The notes beneath the pieces were generated by a model that was not told where the DNA came from, made no database searches, and saw only the letters and a list, made by a program, of their open reading frames with translations. Position numbers and translations under genes: made by a program. Below, in pieces: positions 39,091 through 50,073 of a stretch of DNA of 64,000 nt (its first letter is position 1; each line of letters starts with the position of its first letter). The DNA is from Bacteriovoracia bacterium (lineage in GTDB: Bacteria; Bdellovibrionota; UBA1018; CAIPTA01), in contig JBFWVL010000003.1 in NCBI GenBank assembly GCA_050246755.1, forward strand, positions 32,001 through 96,000. Direction: 5' to 3'.

Positions 39091-39347
39091 GGGGCCAGCT
39101 TAGCAAAGCTCGGCGAACCATCCCAAAAGAAAACGCGCAAGAGCCTGATGGCTGGGATATTTTTCCCCAAATCCATACCGATTTAGCCCCGGTGGATCCA
39201 TTTCCCAAATCCGCGCCGTCGCGTGTAAAGCGCAGAAAATTCGTCTTCTACTCAGTTTTAGGTAGGGCAGGCCAAAAATAAGCGCAGCGTTAGGGTCTTT
39301 TGGTTTTCCAATTGCACTATCGGCCCTCGAAACTCGAAAGGAGCTCG

Positions 39348-40922
39348 ATGCATCCGCAAGAAAAGAAGAAAAAAGAAGGGAAGAAGCAGGCCACTATTTC
39401 TGCGCGCTTGCTGGACGCAGAATCAGAAATCATTCGCGTGTGGGAAGATCGCGTGCGCGAGCAGATTCCTTTGGCCGATGAGCATAGCAGCCAAGTGCTC
39501 CGAAATTCTTTGCCCAGCTTTATCATCGGCGTGGCGAAAGTATTGGCCGAAAATGCCGAGGGCGAAGACTTTAAAGCCGTTTGCCAAAAGCACGGCGAGC
39601 AGAGGGCTGAGAAAACTTATTATTCCGTAGAGCAACTGGTGCATGAATACCGGATTTTGCGCGAAGTGATTTTTGAGCTCATAGAGGGAAAGGAAGCGCT
39701 CGATTCTCGCTCTCGTCAACTGATTAATCTAAGCGTAGACCATGGCTTGGCGGAAGCCGTTACCAGTTTCATCCGGCGCGTGGGCTTGGAGCGGGAGCAG
39801 GCCGAAAAAAATTTGCTCGAAAGCGAAGAACGGCATGATCTCGCCCTTAAAGCGGGCAAGATCGGCATCTGGGAAATGGACTTGAAGTCGCCCCGTATTA
39901 AATGGAGCAGCCGCCAATTCGAGATTTTCGACGTGGATTCTTCTATTGACCCCCTCACCTACGATACGTTCCAGAAGTGTGTGCATCCCGAAGATAAGCC
40001 GCGCATGGCCCTGGAGCTCGACCGGGCCGTACGGGAAAAGCGCGATTTCTTACTGGAGTATCGGGTGATCTGGAGGGATGGAACCATTCACTGGGTGAAG
40101 GCGAGCGGGCGGCCTTACTACGATACGGACGGCAATCCCGATCGCATGATGGGAACGAATATCGACATTACCACCATGAAGGCGGAGCAGGACCAGCGCC
40201 ATGAATTAATCGACAGCCTAACCCGGGAGCAGGAGATTCGGGAGCGTTTCGTGAACGCGCTCACCCACGATCTGCGCACTCCACTCACGGCCGCGAAAAT
40301 GAGTGGGCAGCTGGTGGCCCGAATGGCTTCCCGGCCCGACGACGTAGTGAGGCTGGCGGCTCGCGTGGTGGATAACTTAAATCGGGCCGATGAGATGATC
40401 AGCGATCTGCTTGATTCGAGCCGAATTCGCGCGGGCTTGCCGCTCGCATTAGATATCAAAGAGTGCGAAGCGCGCGCGGTGGTGGTGGCTACGCTCGAAG
40501 AGTTGACGATCATTCACGGCAATCGCTTCGTGGTGGAGAGTGGGAGCGAAGTGCGGGGCTACTGGGATTGCAAGGGCGTGCGCCGTATTCTGGAAAACCT
40601 TTGCTCGAACGCCGTGAAATATGGCGACGCGCATGCGCCGATCTACGTGGCTTGCCGCCGGGAAGCAGCTGAGCTGGTACTTTCGGTGAAAAATACGGGA
40701 GCGCCGCTCGGCACGGAAGAAAAGATGACGCTCTTTAACTTGTTTGAACGCACGGAAAGCGCACGTTCCCTTGGCCGGAAGGGATGGGGAATCGGGCTTA
40801 CGGTGGTGAAGGGAATCGCCGAGTCGCACGGCGGATCCGCCGAGGTGCAGAGCGACGCGGGCAGCACGATCTTCACCGTGCGCTTACCCCTCGACGCCCG
40901 TAATTTTCTCTCTGCACGCTAG
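39348..40922 (+). CDS. Cytoplasmic PAS sensor histidine kinase with RsbRD-N-like domain
   Basis: HG.QR..Y...Q...EY N-terminus; PAS (VHPEDK, EYRV..DG..HW); HDLRTPL; NAVKY; GWGIGL. Confidence 0.9.
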   Translation: MHPQEKKKKEGKKQATISARLLDAESEIIRVWEDRVREQIPLADEHSSQVLRNSLPSFIIGVAKVLAENAEGEDFKAVCQKHGEQRAEKTYYSVEQLVHEYRILREVIFELIEGKEALDSRSRQLINLSVDHGLAEAVTSFIRRVGLEREQAEKNLLESEERHDLALKAGKIGIWEMDLKSPRIKWSSRQFEIFDVDSSIDPLTYDTFQKCVHPEDKPRMALELDRAVREKRDFLLEYRVIWRDGTIHWVKASGRPYYDTDGNPDRMMGTNIDITTMKAEQDQRHELIDSLTREQEIRERFVNALTHDLRTPLTAAKMSGQLVARMASRPDDVVRLAARVVDNLNRADEMISDLLDSSRIRAGLPLALDIKECEARAVVVATLEELTIIHGNRFVVESGSEVRGYWDCKGVRRILENLCSNAVKYGDAHAPIYVACRREAAELVLSVKNTGAPLGTEEKMTLFNLFERTESARSLGRKGWGIGLTVVKGIAESHGGSAEVQSDAGSTIFTVRLPLDARNFLSAR

Positions 40923-40965: not shown

Positions 40966-41118
40966 ATGAGCGCGGAAAACACTGACCTCGTGGAAGGGGA
41001 AGACTACTATCTCGATCCTGACACGGGACTGCTCACCTTTACCGCGGATTACCTGCGCAAGCGTGGGTATTGCTGCGATAGCGGCTGCCGCCATTGTCCC
41101 TACGAGAAGCCATGCTGA
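40966..41118 (+). CDS. DUF5522-like small Cys-rich protein (50 aa, absent from ORF track)
   Basis: MSAENTDLVEGEDYYLDPDTGLLTFTADYLRKRGYCCDSGCRHCPYEKPC. Confidence 0.82.
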   Translation: MSAENTDLVEGEDYYLDPDTGLLTFTADYLRKRGYCCDSGCRHCPYEKPC

Positions 41119-42332
41119 TCGACCTCAGTCCGCTGAAGAATAACCGCGACTATCGCCTGCTTTATTTCAGCCAAGTGGTCTCTCTTTTTGGCAGCATGAT
41201 CACCTACGTAGCGATTCCCTACCAAGTGCATCAGCTCACGCACTCAGTTTTTTTGGTCGGTCTGCTAGGCGCCGTGCAGCTCATTCCGCTAGTGCTGAGC
41301 GGCCTGGTTGGGGGAACCTATGCCGACCGCCTGGATCGCCGCCGGCTCATCCTCTGGTGCGAAGTGCTTATGTTGGTGGGCACGCTGGTGCTCGCGGCGA
41401 ATTCTTGGCGCGCCGAGCCCAGCGTGGTTCTTATCTTTTGCACCACCGCCTTCATGCAGGCGGTGAACGGTTTCCATCGGCCTTCCCTCGAAGCGATCAC
41501 CCAGAAAGTGGTGGCGAAAACGGACTACGCCGCGATCGGGGCGCTGAATTCTCTGCAGCGCACCGGCGGCGCTATTCTCGGGCCGATGCTCGGCGGCGTG
41601 CTATTAGCGTCGGGGGGAGCGGCCTTTGCGTACTTGGCCGATGCGGTCACGTTTTTCTGGGCCTTTGTCATGATCAGTTTATTGCCCCGTAGTGGCTTTG
41701 TTCCCGAAAAAAGAGAGGCCAGTCCGCTCGAGAGCTTTCGCGAGGGTATGGATTTCGCCCTTCGCCGCCCGGAACTGCTCGGAAGTTATTTCGTGGATAT
41801 CGTGGCCATGACTTTCGCTTTTCCGATCGCGATATTTCCCGCGCTCGCGTTGAACTGGGGGGGAGAGAAGGCCGCCGGGCTGCTTTTTTCCGCGATGTCG
41901 GTGGGATCCCTGCTCATTGCCCTCCTGAGCGGATGGCTAAACCGCTTTAAGCGGCACGGGGCATTGATCACAATTGCCGCCGGCACCTGGGGCTTGTGCA
42001 TCGTAGGGTTTGGGATGGCCGATTCGCTCTGGATGGCGCTTCTTTTTCTCGCGCTGGCGGGCGCCTCCGATATGGTGAGTGGAGTGTATCGCTCGGTGGT
42101 ATGGAATCAGGTAATTCCGAACGAAATGCGCGGGCGCTTGGCGGGAGTGGAAATGATCAGCTATATGATCGGCCCTCTCCTCGGGAATTTACGTGTAGGC
42201 ACGCAGGCCTCGTTCATGGGCACACGGATTGCCGTAGTTTCGGGCGGAGTTCTCTGCGCATTGGCTTGCGTGGCCTGCGTCTGGATTTTTCCTAAATTTT
42301 GGAACTACCGCGAAGCCGCGATTCCCGTGTAG
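41112..42332 (+). CDS. MFS transporter (EntS/DHA3-like)
   Basis: IDLSPL..RDYRLL, G..ADRLDRRRL, MRGR; many TM segments. Confidence 0.9.
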   Translation: MLIDLSPLKNNRDYRLLYFSQVVSLFGSMITYVAIPYQVHQLTHSVFLVGLLGAVQLIPLVLSGLVGGTYADRLDRRRLILWCEVLMLVGTLVLAANSWRAEPSVVLIFCTTAFMQAVNGFHRPSLEAITQKVVAKTDYAAIGALNSLQRTGGAILGPMLGGVLLASGGAAFAYLADAVTFFWAFVMISLLPRSGFVPEKREASPLESFREGMDFALRRPELLGSYFVDIVAMTFAFPIAIFPALALNWGGEKAAGLLFSAMSVGSLLIALLSGWLNRFKRHGALITIAAGTWGLCIVGFGMADSLWMALLFLALAGASDMVSGVYRSVVWNQVIPNEMRGRLAGVEMISYMIGPLLGNLRVGTQASFMGTRIAVVSGGVLCALACVACVWIFPKFWNYREAAIPV

Positions 42333-42454
42333 TTCGGTAAGATCCCTAAATTCTGTCTCGATGATAATTGTTTTGGGGCGGCGCTTCTTAGCCCTTATCC
42401 TATGTATAGAAATACTGCTCATACTGCCCGTAACGATATCATGGAGGATACCGT

Positions 42455-43654
42455 ATGCTACGCACGCATGGATGCTTGCTGCTCGCGATTCTGTTATTTG
42501 CCCTGCCAAATATTTCCGCCGCCACGGAGGTGAAGGAATGGACCTTCCTGGTATTCCTCAATGGGCACAACGATCTCGACCAGTACGGGGCTTCGAACAT
42601 GAAGCAGATGGAGCGGGTGGGCTCTACCGATAAGGTAAACGTGGTGGTGCAGTGGGCCTCGATGGCTTCGCCAACAACAAAACGCATTTATGTGAAAAAG
42701 AGCACCAACGCGGAAGTGGTTACCTCGCCCGCAGTGGAAGAGCTTTCGCCGGTGGATATGGGAAATCCCAATAGCCTCATCGAGTTCGTGCGCTGGGCGA
42801 AGGAGCGGTATCCCGCCCGTCACTATTTCATCGACGTGTGGAATCACGGCAGCGGCTGGCACCGGATCAATAAAATTGGCGGGGAGGCGCACCAGGACGA
42901 TATTAGCTGGGACGAGCGTTTCAACTCGCATATCACCACGAAGCAGCTGGGGGCCGCGATGCAGGTTATCAGCCGCGAGCTCGGCCAAAAAGTGGACGTA
43001 TACGGTAGTGACGCCTGCCTGATGGCCATGGCCGAAGTGGCCGGCGAGATGAAAAATTCCGTGGAGGTGTTCGTGGGCGCCGAAGAAACCGAGCCCGGAG
43101 ACGGCTGGCCCTATGACCAGCTGTTGGCCGAATGGAATAAGAAAGAGCGCGCCACTGCTTCCGATGTGGGCCAAATCCTGGTGCGGGAATACGTGAAGGC
43201 CTATTCCGGCGGCCAGTTTGGCAAAGAAGAAGTCACGCTCTCGGCGATGAAGATGTCGAATTGGAACCGCTTCGAGTCGGCATTCAAAAGCTTTTCCTCG
43301 GAAATGCGTAGTCTTGATGCGGCAGAACGAGCAGCGGTGCTCCGGGTGGCGGCCAATACCCAGTCCTACCAGTACTCAGACTATAAGGACTTGTTTCATT
43401 TCACCCAAGGACTTGCGGCCGCCAATCTGCCGAGCGTAGGCCGGAGCAGTCTGGCCCGCCTGCAGGAATCCCTGAATGACCTGATCCTCGAGAACGGAGT
43501 TACGGGAGAGTACCGCAATTCCCGCGGGATTTCCTTGTGGGTGCCTGATACTCGCTACCAGTACGACGCCCACGCCAAAGCATATCAGAGCTTGGCATTT
43601 CATCAGGCCACGAGCTGGGGCCAAGTGCTGGCGCGGCTTTTTCCCAAAAAGTAA
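42455..43654 (+). CDS. Clostripain-family (C11) cysteine peptidase, secreted
   Basis: WTFLVFLNG.NDL, WNHGSGW, DACLM, PG.GW.Y. Confidence 0.9.
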   Translation: MLRTHGCLLLAILLFALPNISAATEVKEWTFLVFLNGHNDLDQYGASNMKQMERVGSTDKVNVVVQWASMASPTTKRIYVKKSTNAEVVTSPAVEELSPVDMGNPNSLIEFVRWAKERYPARHYFIDVWNHGSGWHRINKIGGEAHQDDISWDERFNSHITTKQLGAAMQVISRELGQKVDVYGSDACLMAMAEVAGEMKNSVEVFVGAEETEPGDGWPYDQLLAEWNKKERATASDVGQILVREYVKAYSGGQFGKEEVTLSAMKMSNWNRFESAFKSFSSEMRSLDAAERAAVLRVAANTQSYQYSDYKDLFHFTQGLAAANLPSVGRSSLARLQESLNDLILENGVTGEYRNSRGISLWVPDTRYQYDAHAKAYQSLAFHQATSWGQVLARLFPKK

Positions 43655-43877
43655 TAGCTGAGATCAGCTATGCTCCGATTTTTGGGGCCGGATATGGTGC
43701 TGCCTTCACACGGCAGCGCGATCCGGCCTTTTCATTTTCCCTTTTCCGCCCGCGATGATACGCCGCGCATGTTTCAAAGATATATACCTTTCTATATAGT
43801 TGTTTATTTTTTTTTGGAATCTCCGAAAGGATTGGGGGCCCGCTACGCGAGTGGTTGTTTAATGGAGGTAAAGTGAA

Positions 43878-44591
43878 ATGAAAACGATATCCGGGAGTCA
43901 GCTACGCTTCTGTATTTTACCGTCCGCTAATCCGCCTGCAGAGATGAAGGCGCTGCACGATAATTGTTTCCGGCTATGGATGGATGTGTGGAGCGAAACG
44001 TTCCGCAAGCTGAATTTTGATACTTCTCGGCTCGTGGACGATTTTATCCGCCAAGATTTGATCGCCTGCATTGCCGATGGTGACATGCCGGTGGCGATCC
44101 ACCTTTATTCCTTTTACGCCGCCGATAGCGAGGCCGCACGGGCCCACAGCTACCTAAACGGCAATTACCCTGAGCTCTACTTTGCGCGGCTGAAGAAGCA
44201 GAAGGTACGGTCGCTGATGTCGATGGAGTACCTCACCGTGCATCCTGATTGGCGCAAAGGGAAGAGTAACGTGCATTTTGCCATTGTGCTCGTAGGTCTT
44301 GCCCTAAAAACACTCCGGGCCTACGGTGCCGACGCCGCCATCGCGCCCGCGCGCCGCGATCATAAGGTGCATGATTTGGCTTACGCTTTTGGCGGAGAGC
44401 CGGTGATTGAAAACGTGCTCAACCACAATGTGGCTTGTGATCTGCTGATGTGCCACCGCGACCGCGTGATTCCGCACGCCAATCCCGAAGTGAACGAGCT
44501 CGTAAACTCGCTCTGGCAAACCAGGAAATTCTATCCCAACTACGAATTGCAGCCGGAAGACAATATTCTTCCGCTGCGTAAGGCGGCGTAA
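43878..44591 (+). CDS. Hypothetical GNAT-fold protein (acyl-synthase-like)
   Basis: MEYLTVHPDWRKG resembles GNAT motif A of FeeM/LuxI-type synthases; GGAGG RBS. Confidence 0.5.
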   Translation: MKTISGSQLRFCILPSANPPAEMKALHDNCFRLWMDVWSETFRKLNFDTSRLVDDFIRQDLIACIADGDMPVAIHLYSFYAADSEAARAHSYLNGNYPELYFARLKKQKVRSLMSMEYLTVHPDWRKGKSNVHFAIVLVGLALKTLRAYGADAAIAPARRDHKVHDLAYAFGGEPVIENVLNHNVACDLLMCHRDRVIPHANPEVNELVNSLWQTRKFYPNYELQPEDNILPLRKAA

Positions 44592-45544
44592 TGGAAAACG
44601 TAACGACCAAATTACCGGCCCGCACGGATTTTCCTCCCGAGCTCACCGTTTCTTCGCCGTGGCCTACCGTGGCGGCGATCGCGATGGACTGGGCGATTAT
44701 CGTGGGTTCCATCTGGTTGGCCGAACGGTTCTCTAATCCCGCTACCTTTCTCTTCGCCGTCTTTATGGTAGGTTCGCGGCAGCATGCCTTTTTCTTGATC
44801 ATGCACGAGGGGGCACATAGCTTGATCAGCAAAAACCGCTTTTGGAATGATAAGATCAGTAATTTTTTCGCGGCTTGGCCGGTAGGCTTTTCCACCGAAA
44901 AATATCGGCTACGTCACTGGATTCACCACCGCTACGTAAATACCGACAAAGATCCCGACTGGACCCGCAAGCGCGACGACGTAACTTGGCAATTTCCAAA
45001 AACTAAGATTGTTTACTGGAAGGATACGCTGGCGCACTTGCTCGGCAAGGGCGTGCTGGAGATGATTTTTGCTCTTCGCGGGCTCGGCCTCGCTAAATCG
45101 GATATCCCGCTCGCGGTTCCTTATTTCGGGTTCATCGTGGCAGCGATTACCTTGCTCGGCGGCTGGCGCTTGTTCGGCCTCTATTGGGTGGTTCCCTATT
45201 TCACGGTACTGCCGCTTCTGCACCGAATTCGGAATTCCTCGGAGCATTTGGGGCTTCCCAAAACTCACGTGCTGAATGGAACCCGTAACGTGGTGGGCTC
45301 GCCGGTGGAAACGTTTTTGCTCTGCCCCCATAACGGAGCAATGCATTTAGTTCACCACGTATATCCTTTTATTCCCTGGTACCGACTCAAGGCGGCGAGG
45401 GCCTTTCTTCTCACCAATGAAGAATATCGCACTTACGCCCACGAGAACGATAGCTACTTTCTCCCGCTCGGACGCAGCATGTACCGCGATATGCTACATC
45501 CGCCCCAGACCGAACTAGCCGAAAACACGAAACGAGCCGCATAG
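44591..45544 (+). CDS. Membrane fatty-acid desaturase family protein
   Basis: His boxes HEGAH, HWIHH, SEH, HLVHH; TM segments. Confidence 0.9.
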   Translation: MENVTTKLPARTDFPPELTVSSPWPTVAAIAMDWAIIVGSIWLAERFSNPATFLFAVFMVGSRQHAFFLIMHEGAHSLISKNRFWNDKISNFFAAWPVGFSTEKYRLRHWIHHRYVNTDKDPDWTRKRDDVTWQFPKTKIVYWKDTLAHLLGKGVLEMIFALRGLGLAKSDIPLAVPYFGFIVAAITLLGGWRLFGLYWVVPYFTVLPLLHRIRNSSEHLGLPKTHVLNGTRNVVGSPVETFLLCPHNGAMHLVHHVYPFIPWYRLKAARAFLLTNEEYRTYAHENDSYFLPLGRSMYRDMLHPPQTELAENTKRAA

Positions 45545-45562
45545 AATACATTGGAGTCACCC

Positions 45563-46210
45563 ATGAAAAAACAAACCATCAAAGAGTTTACTGAAGGCGA
45601 GATCAACCGAGTAACCGCTACCATGATGAGCATCGACTGGAGCAACCCGGCGGCTTACGGCGATTTTTTGGCGCAAACCTATTATCATATCTGCCATTCC
45701 ACGCGCCTGCTTGCAGCGGCGGCGGCCCGCTTTCCTTTGCATCAGGAGAAATTCCATTTGCAATGCATGCGGCATTCCGAGGAGGAGCGCAGTCACGAAA
45801 AGCTTTCGTTGAGTGATCTCAAGGAAATCGGCTACCGGCTGGAAGAATTCTCCGAGCTGCCCGGCACCAAGTCTCTTTATCGCTCCAATTATTTCTTGAT
45901 CGAGCACGTGAGCCCCTTGGCGCTTTTCGGCTACGCGTATTTTCTGGAATGGATCGCCATCGCGGGCGGCGAAAAATTGATGGCCGCCACGGAGCCGGTA
46001 TACGGGTCCAGGGCCGTGAAGCATATGCACGTTCATACCAAGGAAGATCCTGAGCACCTAAAGGCCTATGAAGGATTGCTGGAGGAGTTTTCGGGGAAAG
46101 ACCGGGAAGTTCTGATCGAGGCGATCGCCACCACGGCTGCGGACTACGAAAGAATTTATCTGGAGATTGACGCGCGGGCCGCCAGCAAAAAGCAGAAACG
46201 GGCCGCTTAG
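45563..46210 (+). CDS. Heme-oxygenase-like diiron (iron-containing redox) enzyme
   Basis: LAQTYY...STRLL, H..EE..HE, Y.LE, HxxxDxxH ligands. Confidence 0.8.
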   Translation: MKKQTIKEFTEGEINRVTATMMSIDWSNPAAYGDFLAQTYYHICHSTRLLAAAAARFPLHQEKFHLQCMRHSEEERSHEKLSLSDLKEIGYRLEEFSELPGTKSLYRSNYFLIEHVSPLALFGYAYFLEWIAIAGGEKLMAATEPVYGSRAVKHMHVHTKEDPEHLKAYEGLLEEFSGKDREVLIEAIATTAADYERIYLEIDARAASKKQKRAA

Positions 46211-46953
46211 AGGAAACGCATGTTTCCGCGTGCCGTATTTTCGGAACCTACTTCGCGTACGGTTTTAAGGGTGAGCACATAGGTCTCACCCGTAATCGCG
46301 GAAACGAGCTTTACGATGTACTTTTCCTTCATCGCGAAAATGCATTCTTGTTCCGTCATCAATTCGCGCAGAGTATACTCGGGCACGTTTTCCCATTCCG
46401 AGTAGCTAAGGCGCCCTTCCAAAACTTTTTCGACCGTCTCGCAGAGTTGTTTCGTGACTAGACTCGAGCGTTCGTAGAGCTCGAACCAAGGATACGTGGT
46501 GAGCTCGAGGATGGAATAATTGCAAAGCGTGAAGCAGCTGTAGCTGCGGTAGACCTGGATATAATCTTTGTTGGCTACCTCGATCACATCGCCCGGGCTG
46601 ATCTGGGTCATGAAGTTCGAAACGTAGCCAGAATCTGAAAGCAGGAAGAGCTGGCCCATGGCGTAATTCAGCATGGCGCTTTCGTCGAAGCCGTCGATCT
46701 GTTGCTCAAGGGCCCCGGCCACGAAGCGGCTCTGCTCTTGGAGGCCGCGAATAATGCCGATTTGGTTGTCACTGCTTAGTTCGGCAAAGCGCGCCCAAGC
46801 TCTCGCCGGAGCCTGAGGAACCTGTTTTTTAATGAGCTGCTTGAGCAGCGCTTCAAAATGCGTGAGCGTCGAACGCATGAGCTCGATATTGCAGTTTTGA
46901 TGGGGCGGGCCCATCGAGGGGGTAGGGCTTAATTTGGCAGTGCTAATGGGCAT
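46207..46953 (-). CDS. Hypothetical protein with PAS-like segment
   Basis: DVIEV...IQVYRS...LCNYSILEL...W.EL resembles PAS core. Confidence 0.55.
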   Translation of the reverse strand: MPISTAKLSPTPSMGPPHQNCNIELMRSTLTHFEALLKQLIKKQVPQAPARAWARFAELSSDNQIGIIRGLQEQSRFVAGALEQQIDGFDESAMLNYAMGQLFLLSDSGYVSNFMTQISPGDVIEVANKDYIQVYRSYSCFTLCNYSILELTTYPWFELYERSSLVTKQLCETVEKVLEGRLSYSEWENVPEYTLRELMTEQECIFAMKEKYIVKLVSAITGETYVLTLKTVREVGSENTARGNMRFL

Positions 46954-47021
46954 TTGGTGTACTTATACCAAACTGTAGTATTATAGTCAACTACTTTAAG
47001 CGGCCATAAGCTATTATAGGC

Positions 47022-47318
47022 CTAGCTGGGGCGCTTCGGCTTAAGGGCATGCTCCAGCTGTTCGCGCTCTGATTCCAGGATTAGTTCCATCACCGTTTGA
47101 GCGGGCATATCGTACATTTTAATCAAGGCTTTGAGCTTCTTAAGCGGCGGCACCGCGATTCCACGTTCGAAGTTGGAAATAAACTGGGCAGAAGAATAGC
47201 CGAGGGTGTTGCTTACTTCTCGCTGCGTAAGGTTTGCCCGCATGCGCATTTTTTGGAGGTATTCTCCGAGGTTGGTGTATTTGCGGGGAAGTATATATCG
47301 TTTTTTCTTTGCCATCAT
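47022..47318 (-). CDS. XRE family HTH transcriptional regulator
   Basis: LGEYL...R...NLTQREVS..LG......ISNFERG...P. Confidence 0.9.
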   Translation of the reverse strand: MMAKKKRYILPRKYTNLGEYLQKMRMRANLTQREVSNTLGYSSAQFISNFERGIAVPPLKKLKALIKMYDMPAQTVMELILESEREQLEHALKPKRPS

Positions 47319-47634
47319 GTTGTCACATTTCCAAGGTGAATTAGACGCGAGTATGTAAGGAAATCTGAAAAAAATCAAATCTTAGTTAGGGAGGAAATTT
47401 CTTTTCGAATGCCGAAAGGGCACCGTCCGACTGGAGAAATTGCGGTTAGTAAAGGGTGTGCGGCGCATTGTCTGCCCATAAAAATCGCCGCGAAGCCCCA
47501 AAATCTTTCTAATATCCCTATAAGCTCGGAATTATCGTAGTTATAGAGACATATTTCCGTATTCTGCCGCAAATATGACGCACGCGATTGAAGCGTGGAA
47601 ATCGCACGTTTAGCATTGCCTTATAGTAGGCAAA

Positions 47635-48033
47635 ATGAATAAACGGGTTGCGGCGATGAAAGCTACGCCAAAAGTATTGGTGGCCGATGATGATGAGGCT
47701 ATCCAAATTTGTATGGAAGACATCTCCATGCAGGAGGGCTGGGACCTCATATTCGCCCGCGACGGCGAAGAATGCCTTTCGATGGTGGCCACGCAGAATC
47801 CTTCCCTTATTATTTTGGACCAGCGGATGCCGCATATGACCGGAGAAGAGGTGCTCACGCGCCTGCAGGATGAGGGGCGCCACTATCCCATTATTTTAAT
47901 TTCCGCCGAAAAGGATTTATCCCGCATGAAGCGTTTTCCGGCCATCGTAAAGACCCTCACCAAGCCCTTCGACTTAGATGAGTTCATTAATGTGGTAAAC
48001 GCGGAGCTCTCTCGCTTGTCGGCGCCCCTCTAA
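47635..48033 (+). CDS. Single-domain response regulator
   Basis: VLVADDD, LDQRMP, ISA, KPFD. Confidence 0.9.
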   Translation: MNKRVAAMKATPKVLVADDDEAIQICMEDISMQEGWDLIFARDGEECLSMVATQNPSLIILDQRMPHMTGEEVLTRLQDEGRHYPIILISAEKDLSRMKRFPAIVKTLTKPFDLDEFINVVNAELSRLSAPL

Positions 48034-48184: not shown

Positions 48185-49732
48185 ATGGAACAGCTGAGAA
48201 CGGGGCGGGATATGAGGTCCAAAAAAACTGCGAATGCAATTCGGATGTCTGGCAGCACTAGCGCCGAAGACTTCGAGGAAACGGAAGAGAAGCCGGTCGA
48301 ACGTGATTCGCGCCGCCGCAGCTTTCAGCTCATCAGCCAGGATGGAGTGCAACGGCGCATTGCCGTCATTGATGACGATGAGGGCATCCGTCTCTACCTG
48401 AGCGAGGTGCTCGCGCAGCAGGGTTTTCAGGTGCAAGAATACCCCAATGCGGAGCAATTTCTCGTGCGCTTGGAGCAGTCGCTTAAGAACGGGATATCCT
48501 TCGTAGACGTAATTCTCTGCGATGTGCGCTTGCCGGGAGTAGATGGGATCACTTTAGTGAGCCGCGTGAAAGAGCGCACGAACGATTTGCCTGTGATCCT
48601 GATGACGGCCTACGCCGAAGTGGAAGCCGCCGTGCGGGCCATGCGCGACGGCGCCTACGACTATCTCGAAAAACCATTCGACCTCAGCCGCCTGAACAGC
48701 GTGCTCGAAAACGCGGTGCGCTTTCGTAAGCTGAGCTACGAAAATAAATTCCTGAAGAATATAATCGATTCCGACATTCATCTGCAGGGAGTGCAATGCC
48801 AAAGCGCTTCCATGCGCGCGATATACGACCTGATCAAGCGGGTTGCTCCTACTGAATCGAGCGTGCTCATTACTGGGGAAAGCGGTGTGGGCAAGGAAGT
48901 GGTGGCCCGGGCGCTCCACGATAATAGCGAACGTGCCGATAAGCCTTTCATAAGTATTAACTGTTCGGCCATTCCGGAGTCTTTGCTGGAGTCCGAGCTG
49001 TTCGGCCATACCAAGGGATCTTTCACGGGGGCCACCCAGCATCGCAAGGGCCTTTTCGAAGAAGCCGACGGCGGTACTCTTTTCCTCGATGAGATCGGAG
49101 ACCTTCAATTCTCCCTCCAGGCGAAACTCCTCCGGGTTTTTCAGGAGCAGAAGATCCGCGCGGTGGGAGATAGTAAATTCCGGCCGGTGGACGTACGTAT
49201 CATTACGGCTACGCACAAAAATCTGGCGAACGAAATTAAGGAAGGCCGCTTTCGCGAAGACTTATACTACCGCCTCAACGTGATTCCGATTCACATCGCC
49301 CCCCTTCGCCAGCGCAAGGAAGACATCATCAGCTTGGCGAAATTTTTTCTCGATAAGTCGGCAGAAAAAAATAAGATGGACCTCCGGGGATTCACGCCGG
49401 CGGCCCTCACCAAATTGGTAAATCTCCCTTGGCACGGAAACGTGCGGGAGCTGCAAAACGTGATCGAGCGCAGCGTGGTTCTTTCTTCGGGAGACGCGAT
49501 CGATGAATCGGATATTCCTGTGGAGCAGGCCGCCGAGGGCGACGAAATGATGGAGGAGGTGGGTTTCGACATGCCTTCCCTGCGCGACGTGGAAAAGCGC
49601 TATATTCTTTCGGTGCTGCGAAAGCATAACGGAAAGAAAGATGCGGCCGCGAAAGTATTAGGGATGAGCCGCCGGACGCTTTACCGGAAGCTCACTAACC
49701 AGGACGACGAGTCGGATACGGGGCTTAATTAG
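48185..49732 (+). CDS. Sigma54-dependent NtrC-family response regulator
   Basis: REC, GESGVGKE, ESELFGH.KGSFTGA, LDEIGD, WHGNVREL, Fis HTH; start uncertain. Confidence 0.93.
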   Translation: MEQLRTGRDMRSKKTANAIRMSGSTSAEDFEETEEKPVERDSRRRSFQLISQDGVQRRIAVIDDDEGIRLYLSEVLAQQGFQVQEYPNAEQFLVRLEQSLKNGISFVDVILCDVRLPGVDGITLVSRVKERTNDLPVILMTAYAEVEAAVRAMRDGAYDYLEKPFDLSRLNSVLENAVRFRKLSYENKFLKNIIDSDIHLQGVQCQSASMRAIYDLIKRVAPTESSVLITGESGVGKEVVARALHDNSERADKPFISINCSAIPESLLESELFGHTKGSFTGATQHRKGLFEEADGGTLFLDEIGDLQFSLQAKLLRVFQEQKIRAVGDSKFRPVDVRIITATHKNLANEIKEGRFREDLYYRLNVIPIHIAPLRQRKEDIISLAKFFLDKSAEKNKMDLRGFTPAALTKLVNLPWHGNVRELQNVIERSVVLSSGDAIDESDIPVEQAAEGDEMMEEVGFDMPSLRDVEKRYILSVLRKHNGKKDAAAKVLGMSRRTLYRKLTNQDDESDTGLN

Positions 49733-49758: not shown

Positions 49759-50073
49759 ATGGCGTTACCAAAAAGAGAATACAGTATGGCAATTTCCGAA
49801 GCCACGCGCAGCAGGTATATACAGAACCTGCAGGCGCAGGTGCAGATGCTTCGCAATGCCATGGAGAAGTCCGACTTTGAAGAAGTGAGAGCGATTTGTC
49901 ACCGCGTGCAGGGGAGCGCCGGGCTCTTCGGGATGAAGGATCTCGGCGAAGCTTGCCGCGCGATGGAAGAGGCGGCGATTGCCAATCTTCCCACTCAAGT
50001 AGTGGAGGCATTTCAGGTGATCGAAGTGATTTTGGCGCGGAAAGTAGAAGGCCCTATCGACGCTCAGGTTTAG
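49759..50073 (+). CDS. Stand-alone HPt protein
   Basis: CHRVQGSAGLFG...L...C..ME. Confidence 0.8.
   Translation: MALPKREYSMAISEATRSRYIQNLQAQVQMLRNAMEKSDFEEVRAICHRVQGSAGLFGMKDLGEACRAMEEAAIANLPTQVVEAFQVIEVILARKVEGPIDAQV

Follow-up and report, generated by a model that had tools for sequence, protein, structure and literature searches.

A linked module of acyltransferase-fold, diiron oxidase and PAS-like/XRE genes recurs in Bdellovibrionota and may make and sense an oxidised N-acyl compound

Five genes at one locus

We analysed 64,000 nucleotides of DNA from a Bacteriovoracia bacterium of the phylum Bdellovibrionota (contig JBFWVL010000003.1, assembly GCA_050246755.1, positions 32,001 to 96,000), referred to here as the window. 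Within it are five adjoining genes that we name G, D, H, P and X. G is predicted to encode a stand-alone acyltransferase, D and H two diiron oxidases, P a PAS-like protein and X an XRE-family regulator. We confirmed that this arrangement goes far beyond chance and that it recurs, rearranged, at every related locus examined.

The open reading frame (ORF) list places all five genes where an initial annotation of the window had put them. G (43878-44591, + strand, 237 amino acids) and D (44591-45544, + strand, 317 amino acids) overlap in a TAATG. The D stop is followed, after a gap of 18 nt, by the ATG of H (45563-46210, + strand), which has a GGAG ribosome-binding site 8 nt upstream; an alternative TTG start lies at 45551. 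P (46207-46953, − strand, 248 amino acids) shares its end with H, the two stop codons overlapping as TTAG at 46207-46210. X (47022-47318, − strand) encodes 98 amino acids from MMAKKK, with a longer ORF from a TTG at 47378. The G/D overlap, the 18-nt gap and the overlapping stops had each been described earlier and can all be read in the sequence.

G is predicted to share the fold of FeeM and LuxI

G contains the motif EYLTVHPDWRK, as first reported, and has no family match in Pfam or NCBIfam. The Pfam models for FeeM (PF21926) and Acetyltransf_5 (PF13444) do not detect it, a difference from FeeM-type systems. It also differs from LuxI, having no Autoind_synth match at E≤1, and none of 38 relatives matches any GNAT or LuxI Pfam model at that threshold. 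Sequence searches of the PDB with G alone, or with profiles A1 and A2, returned nothing meaningful.

Structure prediction was more informative. An AlphaFold2 model of G, built on the 38 relatives, has a predicted local distance difference test score (pLDDT) of 93.8. Its best Foldseek matches in the PDB are BjaI, FeeM, RpaI, MesI and EsaI, with E from 4.5e-6 and template modelling (TM) scores of 0.53-0.67. BjaI is matched at E 4.5e-6 (TM 0.57/0.63) and FeeM (2g0b) at E 8.3e-6 (TM 0.53/0.64-0.67); IucB-like and NcdE GNATs are among the weaker structural matches. The nearest named clusters in the ESM Atlas carry PF21926 FeeM (TM 0.63-0.66), and Acetyltransf_5 clusters are also among the neighbours, as is one cluster rich in Myxococcota. 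A GNAT fold had been named beforehand as the point on which the reading of this gene would turn, and the predicted structure has it, with acyl-homoserine lactone (AHL) synthases and FeeM as the best PDB matches.

These structure matches, combined with the lack of any sequence-model match, place G in the FeeM/LuxI fold and outside both families. By its predicted structure, G is an acyltransferase that stands alone and has a GNAT fold of the FeeM/LuxI type; no Pfam or NCBIfam model covers its family. The original description of a LuxI/FeeM-type enzyme holds for the fold. Of the two types, G lies nearer the FeeM-type N-acyl amino acid synthases, and it is in neither Pfam family. In a search of 1.84 billion clustered proteins, the G profile reaches 938 representatives at E≤1e-3; conserved residues of the family include W34, F56, R58, R159 and W213.

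The PF21926 model does match two other genes of the same genome. A 353-amino-acid protein encoded at G000:C7:15168-16232 (− strand, region L080; G000 is the source genome) has a canonical FeeM domain (PF21926, 5.3e-13) fused to PilZ and ends LKAA; it may be a synthase for N-acyl amino acids that is controlled by cyclic di-GMP. An hhalign comparison of the G profile with this FeeM-PilZ protein gave a probability of 1.2% and aligned only the HP(D/N)WR segment.

D and H resemble diiron oxidases that act on arginine

D matches Pfam FA_desaturase at 9.7e-36. Its histidine boxes are HX3H (H72/H76), HX2HH (H109/H112/H113) and HX2HH (H252/H255/H256), together with H219, which agrees with the four-His-box membrane desaturase first proposed. 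The nine histidines are kept in all 14 relatives. The best NCBIfam model is GntB, an L-arginine gamma-hydroxylase, which matches D over its full length (1.3e-40) at 139.7 bits, below the 380-bit cut-off, and is closer to D than are the lipid desaturase models DesA and DesB. D is a relative rather than an equivalog. A sequence search with D against the PDB returned nothing. By these matches, D is a membrane diiron enzyme of the fatty-acid-desaturase superfamily, of a GntB-like subtype. This subtype is found in modules that also carry H; modules with D only have a generic desaturase-like protein.

H matches Pfam PF14518 (Haem_oxygenas_2) at 32 bits, above the 28.9 cut-off, as do 39 of 39 relatives. 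Residues E79, H82, E133, H162, D166 and H169 (numbered from the TTG start) are kept in 41 of 41 sequences and form a 3-His/3-carboxylate ligand set. Its pattern, E-x2-H, E, H-x3-D...H, parallels the ligands of MboA and is shared with MboA/VarO-type desaturases. Against the PDB, the H profile finds the uncharacterised structure 3dde (5.9e-19), MboA (1.8e-7, 33.9 bits) and UndA (0.0066). H is accordingly assigned, from family and ligand matches, as a haem-oxygenase-like diiron oxidase (HDO), the class named in the initial annotation, with MboA as its closest characterised relative. MboA and GntB are remote kin of H and D, and H is nearer to 3dde. Both enzymes oxidise arginine at C-beta/C-gamma. 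The diiron families proposed at first stand, but the nearest characterised relatives of both proteins act on arginine side chains rather than on fatty acyl chains.

P and X as a putative sensor and DNA-binding pair

By sequence, P has no match in Pfam, NCBIfam or the PDB. Its AlphaFold2 model (pLDDT 84.9) has an N-terminal helical bundle (residues ~17-101) and a C-terminal PAS-like domain (~104-235). Its best Foldseek matches are PAS domains throughout, with probabilities of 0.87-1.0, TM scores by target of up to 0.68 and a best E of 2.7e-3; the second-best is the FAD-PAS of NifL, and haem-PAS domains are also present. ESM Atlas neighbours carry PAS families, and the P family is essentially confined to Bdellovibrionota. 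The PAS call made for this gene tentatively survives at the level of fold, with weak scores and no Pfam PAS match. Within the PAS-like part, E125 and E197 are kept in 43 of 43 sequences, R162 and Y146 in 42, Q133 in 41 and R136 in 39. The modelled fold makes P a candidate ligand sensor.

X matches Pfam HTH_31 (8.6e-9) and HTH_3 (1.2e-7), and so is the XRE-family helix-turn-helix (HTH) regulator that had been noted next to the operon. Its subfamily is associated with the module, carries the motif QFISNWERG..PP and is defined in an alignment of 27 module-linked relatives. In the window X lies upstream of P on the same strand. Across the regions, 22 P genes have an X no more than 400 bp away; 19 of them share its strand and 13 have X upstream. 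P usually lies on the strand opposite the enzyme genes, divergent or convergent to them, and is co-oriented with X. P subfamilies follow enzyme content, and all 8 P proteins ending FI come from D-containing modules. Sixteen P genes away from known modules were examined: 1 belongs to a module missed by the G search, 5 have X only and 10 are alone.

The order of X then P is the N-to-C order of the XRE part and PAS-like ligand module in regulators of the MmyB/MltR type, the nearest known regulator architecture. MmyB relatives are mainly actinomycete. In the present module the two parts are separate proteins, P has an additional N-terminal helical bundle and no Pfam match, and MltR (3pxp) is not among the Foldseek matches listed for P. 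The available text on MltR describes a fused XRE and PAS-like regulator that binds a fatty acid and was crystallised with myristic acid, and links the MmyB/MltR family to lipid-derived signals and secondary metabolism (PMC3406030).

A toxin-antitoxin reading of the X-P pair was considered, X having weak HipB, MqsA and HigA-type HTH matches. We rejected it on the grounds that P is PAS-like, is tied to G and an oxidase in 45 of 50 cases, and that there is no match to any toxin family.

Some P genes occur in other settings. Four orthologous X-P pairs (L092, L095, L100 and L103, from genomes G131, G126, G160 and G072) have no G, H or D. They are divergent from an operon encoding an acyl-ACP (acyl carrier protein) thioesterase, a 177-182-amino-acid protein of no family and an MmgE/PrpD-family protein, and they also adjoin TamB/Omp85 genes. 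In the source genome, a lone P-like gene (G000:C1:460007-460702, regions L089/L105) has a CHASE2 histidine kinase on one side and a sigma-54 response regulator on the other; P-like proteins may feed into two-component signalling too. In one complete genome, two tandem P genes stand beside a single G-H pair (L040:9298-10796).

The module is a linked core with optional parts

A G profile was searched against 401 sampled Bdellovibrionota genomes. It matches 133 of them, in 67 of 204 genera, and 48 of the 53 genomes of one family. Carriers often have 2-4 matches and include complete single-contig genomes; G131 and G256 are complete genomes with orthologous modules. Linkage was counted by an iterated hidden Markov model scan of 48 regions (7 from genome contigs, 39 chosen from G-profile matches and the source genome's own two), which are a sample chosen from G matches and not a census.

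Within 3 kb of the 50 G genes in these regions, H or D is present at 49, P at 45 and X at 31. The main architectures around G are HPX (19), HP (12), DPX (6), DHPX (5) and H (4); DHP, DP, DHX and P alone occur once each. A soluble HDO with no membrane enzyme is found in 35 of the 50 modules, and the full five-gene set in 5. The linkage counts thus define a conserved core of G, H or D, and P, often with X, and the architectures show that the desaturase D is optional and the five-gene form a minority. Gene order and orientation vary among regions, so it is linkage that is conserved rather than mere synteny. The expectation that the five genes would co-occur in other genomes is borne out, with the full set in a minority of the modules and X not a constant member.

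At the genome level, 116 genomes match both the G and P profiles, 17 G only, 22 P only and 246 neither, counts that come from kin and not from independent genomes. G and P distances are correlated (Mantel r 0.41, reached by 0 of 2000 permutations) and their nearest neighbours agree in 12 of 39 cases, both measures being confounded by shared ancestry. Paralogous modules of one genome fall in deep, separate clades. The source genome has a second, divergent module at G000:C1:832229-835160, consisting of X (−), a generic desaturase-like D ending EKAA (+), G ending LKAA (+) and P ending IHFI (−). The only recurrent class of neighbours is receiver and two-component proteins, with 26 ORFs in 16 of the 48 regions.

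Individual lineages show further variation. In that of regions L005 and L049, two tandem modules have a major facilitator superfamily (MFS) transporter between them, and a PaaK-like adenylate-forming enzyme lies directly 5' of G (L005 1349-2650 and 6275-7591; L049 5698-6999 and 10855-12171), which hints that G in this lineage uses an activated free acid. In one genus, some G-profile matches have one or two in-frame TAA stops (e.g., G217:C36, G316:C1:625746, G388:C1:1819007 and G256:C1:2237122). Decaying paralogues or shorter gene calls may account for them; in the regions that correspond to G388 and G256 (L045 and L042), the ORF scan gives 216-amino-acid G genes.

The enzymes tend to carry Ala-Ala tails

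The three enzymes end alike, G in RKAA and both D and H in KRAA, a feature that the initial annotation did not include. Across the regions, Ala-Ala ends occur in 27 of 50 G, 8 of 14 D and 23 of 41 H proteins, and in 0 of 47 P, 0 of 38 X and 7 of 516 neighbouring control ORFs. An independent set of G-family representatives has Ala-Ala at the end of 56 of 139 proteins. The genome's own transfer-messenger RNA (tmRNA) tag is GNEYALAA, and ClpX is present (682 bits, over cut-off).

A precedent comes from sigma-AntA, for which the available text reports that a native C-terminal Ala-Ala makes the protein a ClpXP substrate, that Ala-Ala-COOH is the part of ssrA essential for ClpXP and that this end is kept in 67 of 71 orthologues (PMC7142297). 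Excerpts of an Escherichia coli screen likewise give ssrA-like tails as the most potent short degrons. Together with the Ala-Ala bias, the tmRNA tag and ClpX, these precedents suggest that the enzymes' instability is programmed, and G, D and H are probably short-lived ClpXP substrates by way of an ssrA-like tail. The module resembles sigma-AntA in that Ala-Ala-COOH ends are kept across orthologues and are tied to a specialised-metabolite pathway. It differs in that the tails are on biosynthetic enzymes, not on a regulator, and in that the preceding residues are K/R-K/R, not Leu.

Genome-wide, Ala-Ala is the second most frequent C-terminal dipeptide (56 of 3238 long ORFs; KK is first, with 89), and K or R immediately precedes it in 34 of the 56. 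Carriers include a response regulator by Pfam (C1:860145-861092) and three proteins that by eye resemble CheW (C1:1779720-1780223), a receiver (C1:194837-195532) and an Hpt (histidine phosphotransfer) protein (C1:1648334-1648756). Tails of this type may be used more widely on signalling proteins in this organism.

A proposed route to an oxidised N-acyl product

The nearest characterised relatives of the oxidases offer a clue to the substrate. In the available text on MboA, the enzyme desaturates C-beta/C-gamma of the C-terminal arginine of Leu-Ala-Arg; its substrate is a tripeptide, i.e., an N-acylated (peptidyl) arginine (PMC13185094). The same text gives membrane desaturase-like proteins as the only other enzymes with comparable chemistry, and describes a dedicated partner that MboA needs, the flavin/Fe2S2 reductase MboB (PMC13185094). 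The setting of MboA/VarO-type enzymes and of GntB is different: the present module has no ATP-grasp ligases or MboB-type reductase, and its GNAT-fold enzyme would make the substrate.

Two other systems combine similar enzymes. In the Tyz acyl-oxazolone pathway, as excerpted, TyzA, whose fold matches FeeM and BjaI, is followed by the O2-dependent TyzC, which desaturates an N-acyl amino acid in its amino-acid part (PMC10404671). The likeness lies in a stand-alone acyltransferase followed by an O2-dependent enzyme. The Tyz pathway uses a nitroreductase-type flavoenzyme and a ThiF cyclase, whereas the module uses diiron oxidases (HDO and/or FA-desaturase-like) and has no ThiF cyclase. The putative stieleriacine cluster, again from part of its report, joins N-acyl amino acid synthases to a fatty acid desaturase and a regulator (PMC7293339), a combination that the module shares. 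A dedicated PAS-like/XRE pair and Ala-Ala tails set the module apart from both. The fold of G, the distant kinship with MboA and GntB and these two precedents lead us to infer a product that H and/or D would oxidise, namely an N-acyl amino acid, possibly an arginine-type one.

In the pathway that we propose, G would acylate an amine with acyl-ACP or acyl-CoA as the donor; the acceptor would most likely be an amino acid, possibly one of the arginine/ornithine type. The O2-dependent enzymes H (a soluble HDO) and D (in the membrane) would then desaturate or hydroxylate the product of G. The separately transcribed X-P pair would be a two-protein cytoplasmic regulator of the operon, and possibly of other genes, with this compound or a near precursor of it as the cue. 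The basic-basic-Ala-Ala tails would make the enzymes short-lived ClpXP substrates, and a stop in transcription would quickly end production of the signal because the tails would shorten enzyme life.

Several lines of evidence favour a regulatory, ligand-sensing role for P with X. These are the co-orientation of P with X, the conserved residues of the PAS-like part, the tracking of enzyme content by P subfamilies, the covariation of G and P, the separate clades of paralogous modules, the solo P and X-P genes and the parallel with MmyB/MltR architecture. The central proposal of the initial annotation, for which the evidence is contextual, would have a split PAS+HTH receptor sense the product as part of a quorum-sensing-like circuit. 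Here the module can be set beside LuxI/LuxR. Both have a synthase of this fold (BjaI, RpaI, MesI and EsaI on the LuxI side), a sensor-fold gene adjoining the synthase gene, several paralogous synthase/sensor pairs per genome and 'solo' sensors. LuxR has an autoinducer-binding domain and a GerE HTH, whereas the module has a PAS-like protein and a separate XRE protein, and AHL synthesis has no counterpart to its obligatory diiron oxidases. We give about an even chance to the view that the locus is one copy of a conserved module for making, and probably sensing, a small oxidised N-acyl compound.

Weighing this reading against alternatives

A number of observations weigh against a compound that is both made and sensed in this way. 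The regions counted were selected by G matches and include the near-duplicates L005 and L049. No GNAT, FeeM or LuxI sequence model matches G, and the acyltransferase call comes from predicted structure alone. The clue to arginine is drawn from distant relatives, MboA at 1.8e-7 and GntB far under its cut-off. The PAS assignment of P is weak, with no Foldseek match at E≤1e-3 and no sequence match, and a weak search found no fused X-P protein or longer form of P. P is missing within 3 kb of 5 of the 50 G genes and X of 19, and 17 genomes have G without P, so the receptor is not obligatory. The genus of region L040 has up to 7 P-profile matches per genome against up to 3 for G, and 10 of the 16 'solo' P genes lack both X and enzymes in their vicinity; the role of P may be broader. 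Finally, Ala-Ala ends are not rare in this genome, occurring on 56 of 3238 long ORFs.

The alternative that fares best is a small biosynthetic cluster for a bioactive compound, for example an antimetabolite or antibiotic acting on prey or competitors in the manner of mangotoxin. Its product would not be sensed, and X and P would be ordinary pathway regulators answering to another cue, such as redox, oxygen or prey contact, with no cell-to-cell signalling. MboA, the nearest characterised relative of H, makes a toxin warhead. PAS domains often sense redox, O2 or light, and the FAD-PAS of NifL is the second-best match of P, with haem-PAS domains also present. In the window, an EntS-like MFS exporter is encoded 1.5 kb upstream of the operon; in L005 an MFS gene lies between the two modules, and in L005 and L049 a PaaK-like adenylating enzyme comes before G. 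Across the 48 regions, however, no resistance gene, transporter or further biosynthetic gene recurs. A single genome can hold up to 3-4 paralogous modules, every one accompanied by a P of its own, which is more like multiple signal/receptor pairs than toxin clusters, and the tracking of enzyme content by P subfamilies (8 of 8 FI-ending P proteins with D) also speaks against this alternative. We consider such a cluster, with its unsensed product and ordinary regulation by X and P, rather unlikely.

A second alternative is remodelling of membrane aminolipids, in which an OlsB-like G would form a lyso-aminolipid, D and H would hydroxylate or desaturate it and X and P would adjust membrane composition. 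The fold matched by G is common to FeeM and OlsB-type enzymes, but no OlsA-like O-acyltransferase or other lipid gene is recurrent near G. By its matches D belongs among the membrane enzymes of the lipid desaturase superfamily, yet the window D is nearer to an amino-acid hydroxylase model than to DesA or DesB, and 35 of 50 modules have a soluble HDO only. The available text of one source has hydroxylases modifying ornithine lipids (PMC12971839), and X-P pairs also adjoin the acyl-ACP thioesterase operon, both of which fit a lipid pathway; several divergent paralogues per genome and degron-like tails would be unexpected for housekeeping lipid synthesis. We think this explanation quite improbable.

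Last, P might be no sensor at all and instead an accessory of the diiron enzymes, for example a cofactor-binding PAS protein for electron delivery or metal-site assembly, much as MboB is the partner of MboA. Diiron oxidases need reducing equivalents. MboA requires a dedicated partner, the module encodes no reductase, PAS domains can bind FAD or haem (such domains are among the P matches) and P is more constantly linked to G and an oxidase than X is (45 against 31 of 50), but P lies mostly on the strand opposite the enzymes and co-oriented with X, occurs without any oxidase (alone in 10 of 16 cases, with X in 5), has no NAD(P)H-binding or Fe-S domain, unlike MboB, and lacks the enzymes' Ala-Ala tail (0 of 47), and we see a very slim chance for this role.

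Novelty and significance

Full-text literature searches and term searches of an HDO review found no description of the module, supplementary tables lying outside the search, in line with the initial annotation, which had not recognised the system as a described one. The parts are from known superfamilies and the enzyme logic has precedents; the two protein families G and P, which are sizeable, have no Pfam model. A third of the genomes sampled from the phylum carry the module.

Returning to a product that is made and sensed, a wider proposal can be framed, which we hold tentatively and think rather doubtful in full. The modules would be a phylum-wide Bdellovibrionota family of the autoinducer type, with several paralogous pairs of a FeeM/LuxI-fold synthase and a PAS-like/XRE receptor in each genome, solo receptors, N-acyl amino acids oxidised in the side chain as signals, short-lived synthases and a part in timing or coordinating the predatory cycle. 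The products would possibly be alkenes, alkynes or alcohols of the N-acyl-arginine type, formed by HDO and GntB-like enzymes. Literature searches turned up no endogenous small-molecule signalling system of Bdellovibrio-type predators. If the wider proposal is true, predatory bacteria would have in it their first endogenous system of chemical communication, with new signal chemistry. If our reading of the module itself is right, it would offer a new clade of acyltransferases, HDO and desaturase-like chemistry on N-acyl amino acids in a new setting, a split version of XRE+PAS lipid receptors and possibly conserved, built-in Ala-Ala degrons on biosynthetic enzymes, as well as a genetic handle on how predators time their life cycle.

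Sequence around the module

The region ahead of the operon is AT-rich, as first described, with GC content falling to 0.506 at 43500-43999 from 0.56-0.58 on both sides. A consensus scan gave a candidate sigma-70-type promoter of the G-D-H operon 5' of G (43773-43800, + strand, TTCAAA-16-TATAGT). Two promoter-like sites were found against 3.4 expected from shuffles, which is no enrichment. Inside the putative promoter, a palindrome scan picked out the imperfect palindrome AAAGATATATACCTTT (43776-43791) as a candidate operator. A second palindrome, TTTGGTGTA-ct-TATACCAAA (46953-46972), lies at the start of P in the 68-nt X-P spacer and is a candidate regulatory site. Each is a single instance and carries no functional claim. 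Operator discovery 5' of G with the window and three same-genus genomes met sequences too diverged to align, and reading the sequence 5' of G by eye gave no GG-N10-GC match for a sigma-54 promoter. Among public sequencing runs, four DNA metagenome runs contain the stretch or part of it; no RNA run is listed.

Two genes upstream of the operon, within 41094-43654, encode the EntS-like MFS exporter (3.7e-69, below cut-off) and a C11 peptidase of the clostripain family whose start resembles a signal peptide. Neither is conserved beside the module at other loci. A siderophore-type hydroxamate product was considered in view of the IucB-like and NcdE matches of G and of the upstream MFS gene; it was rejected because that gene does not accompany the module elsewhere and there is no N-hydroxylase.

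Further out, genes of a phosphorelay surround the module. On one side is the gene of a PAS histidine kinase (39300-40922). On the other are those of a single receiver protein (47635-48033), an NtrC-type sigma-54 regulator (48185-49732) and an Hpt protein (49759-50073). A receiver and a sigma-54 regulator also adjoin the module in regions L001 and L003.

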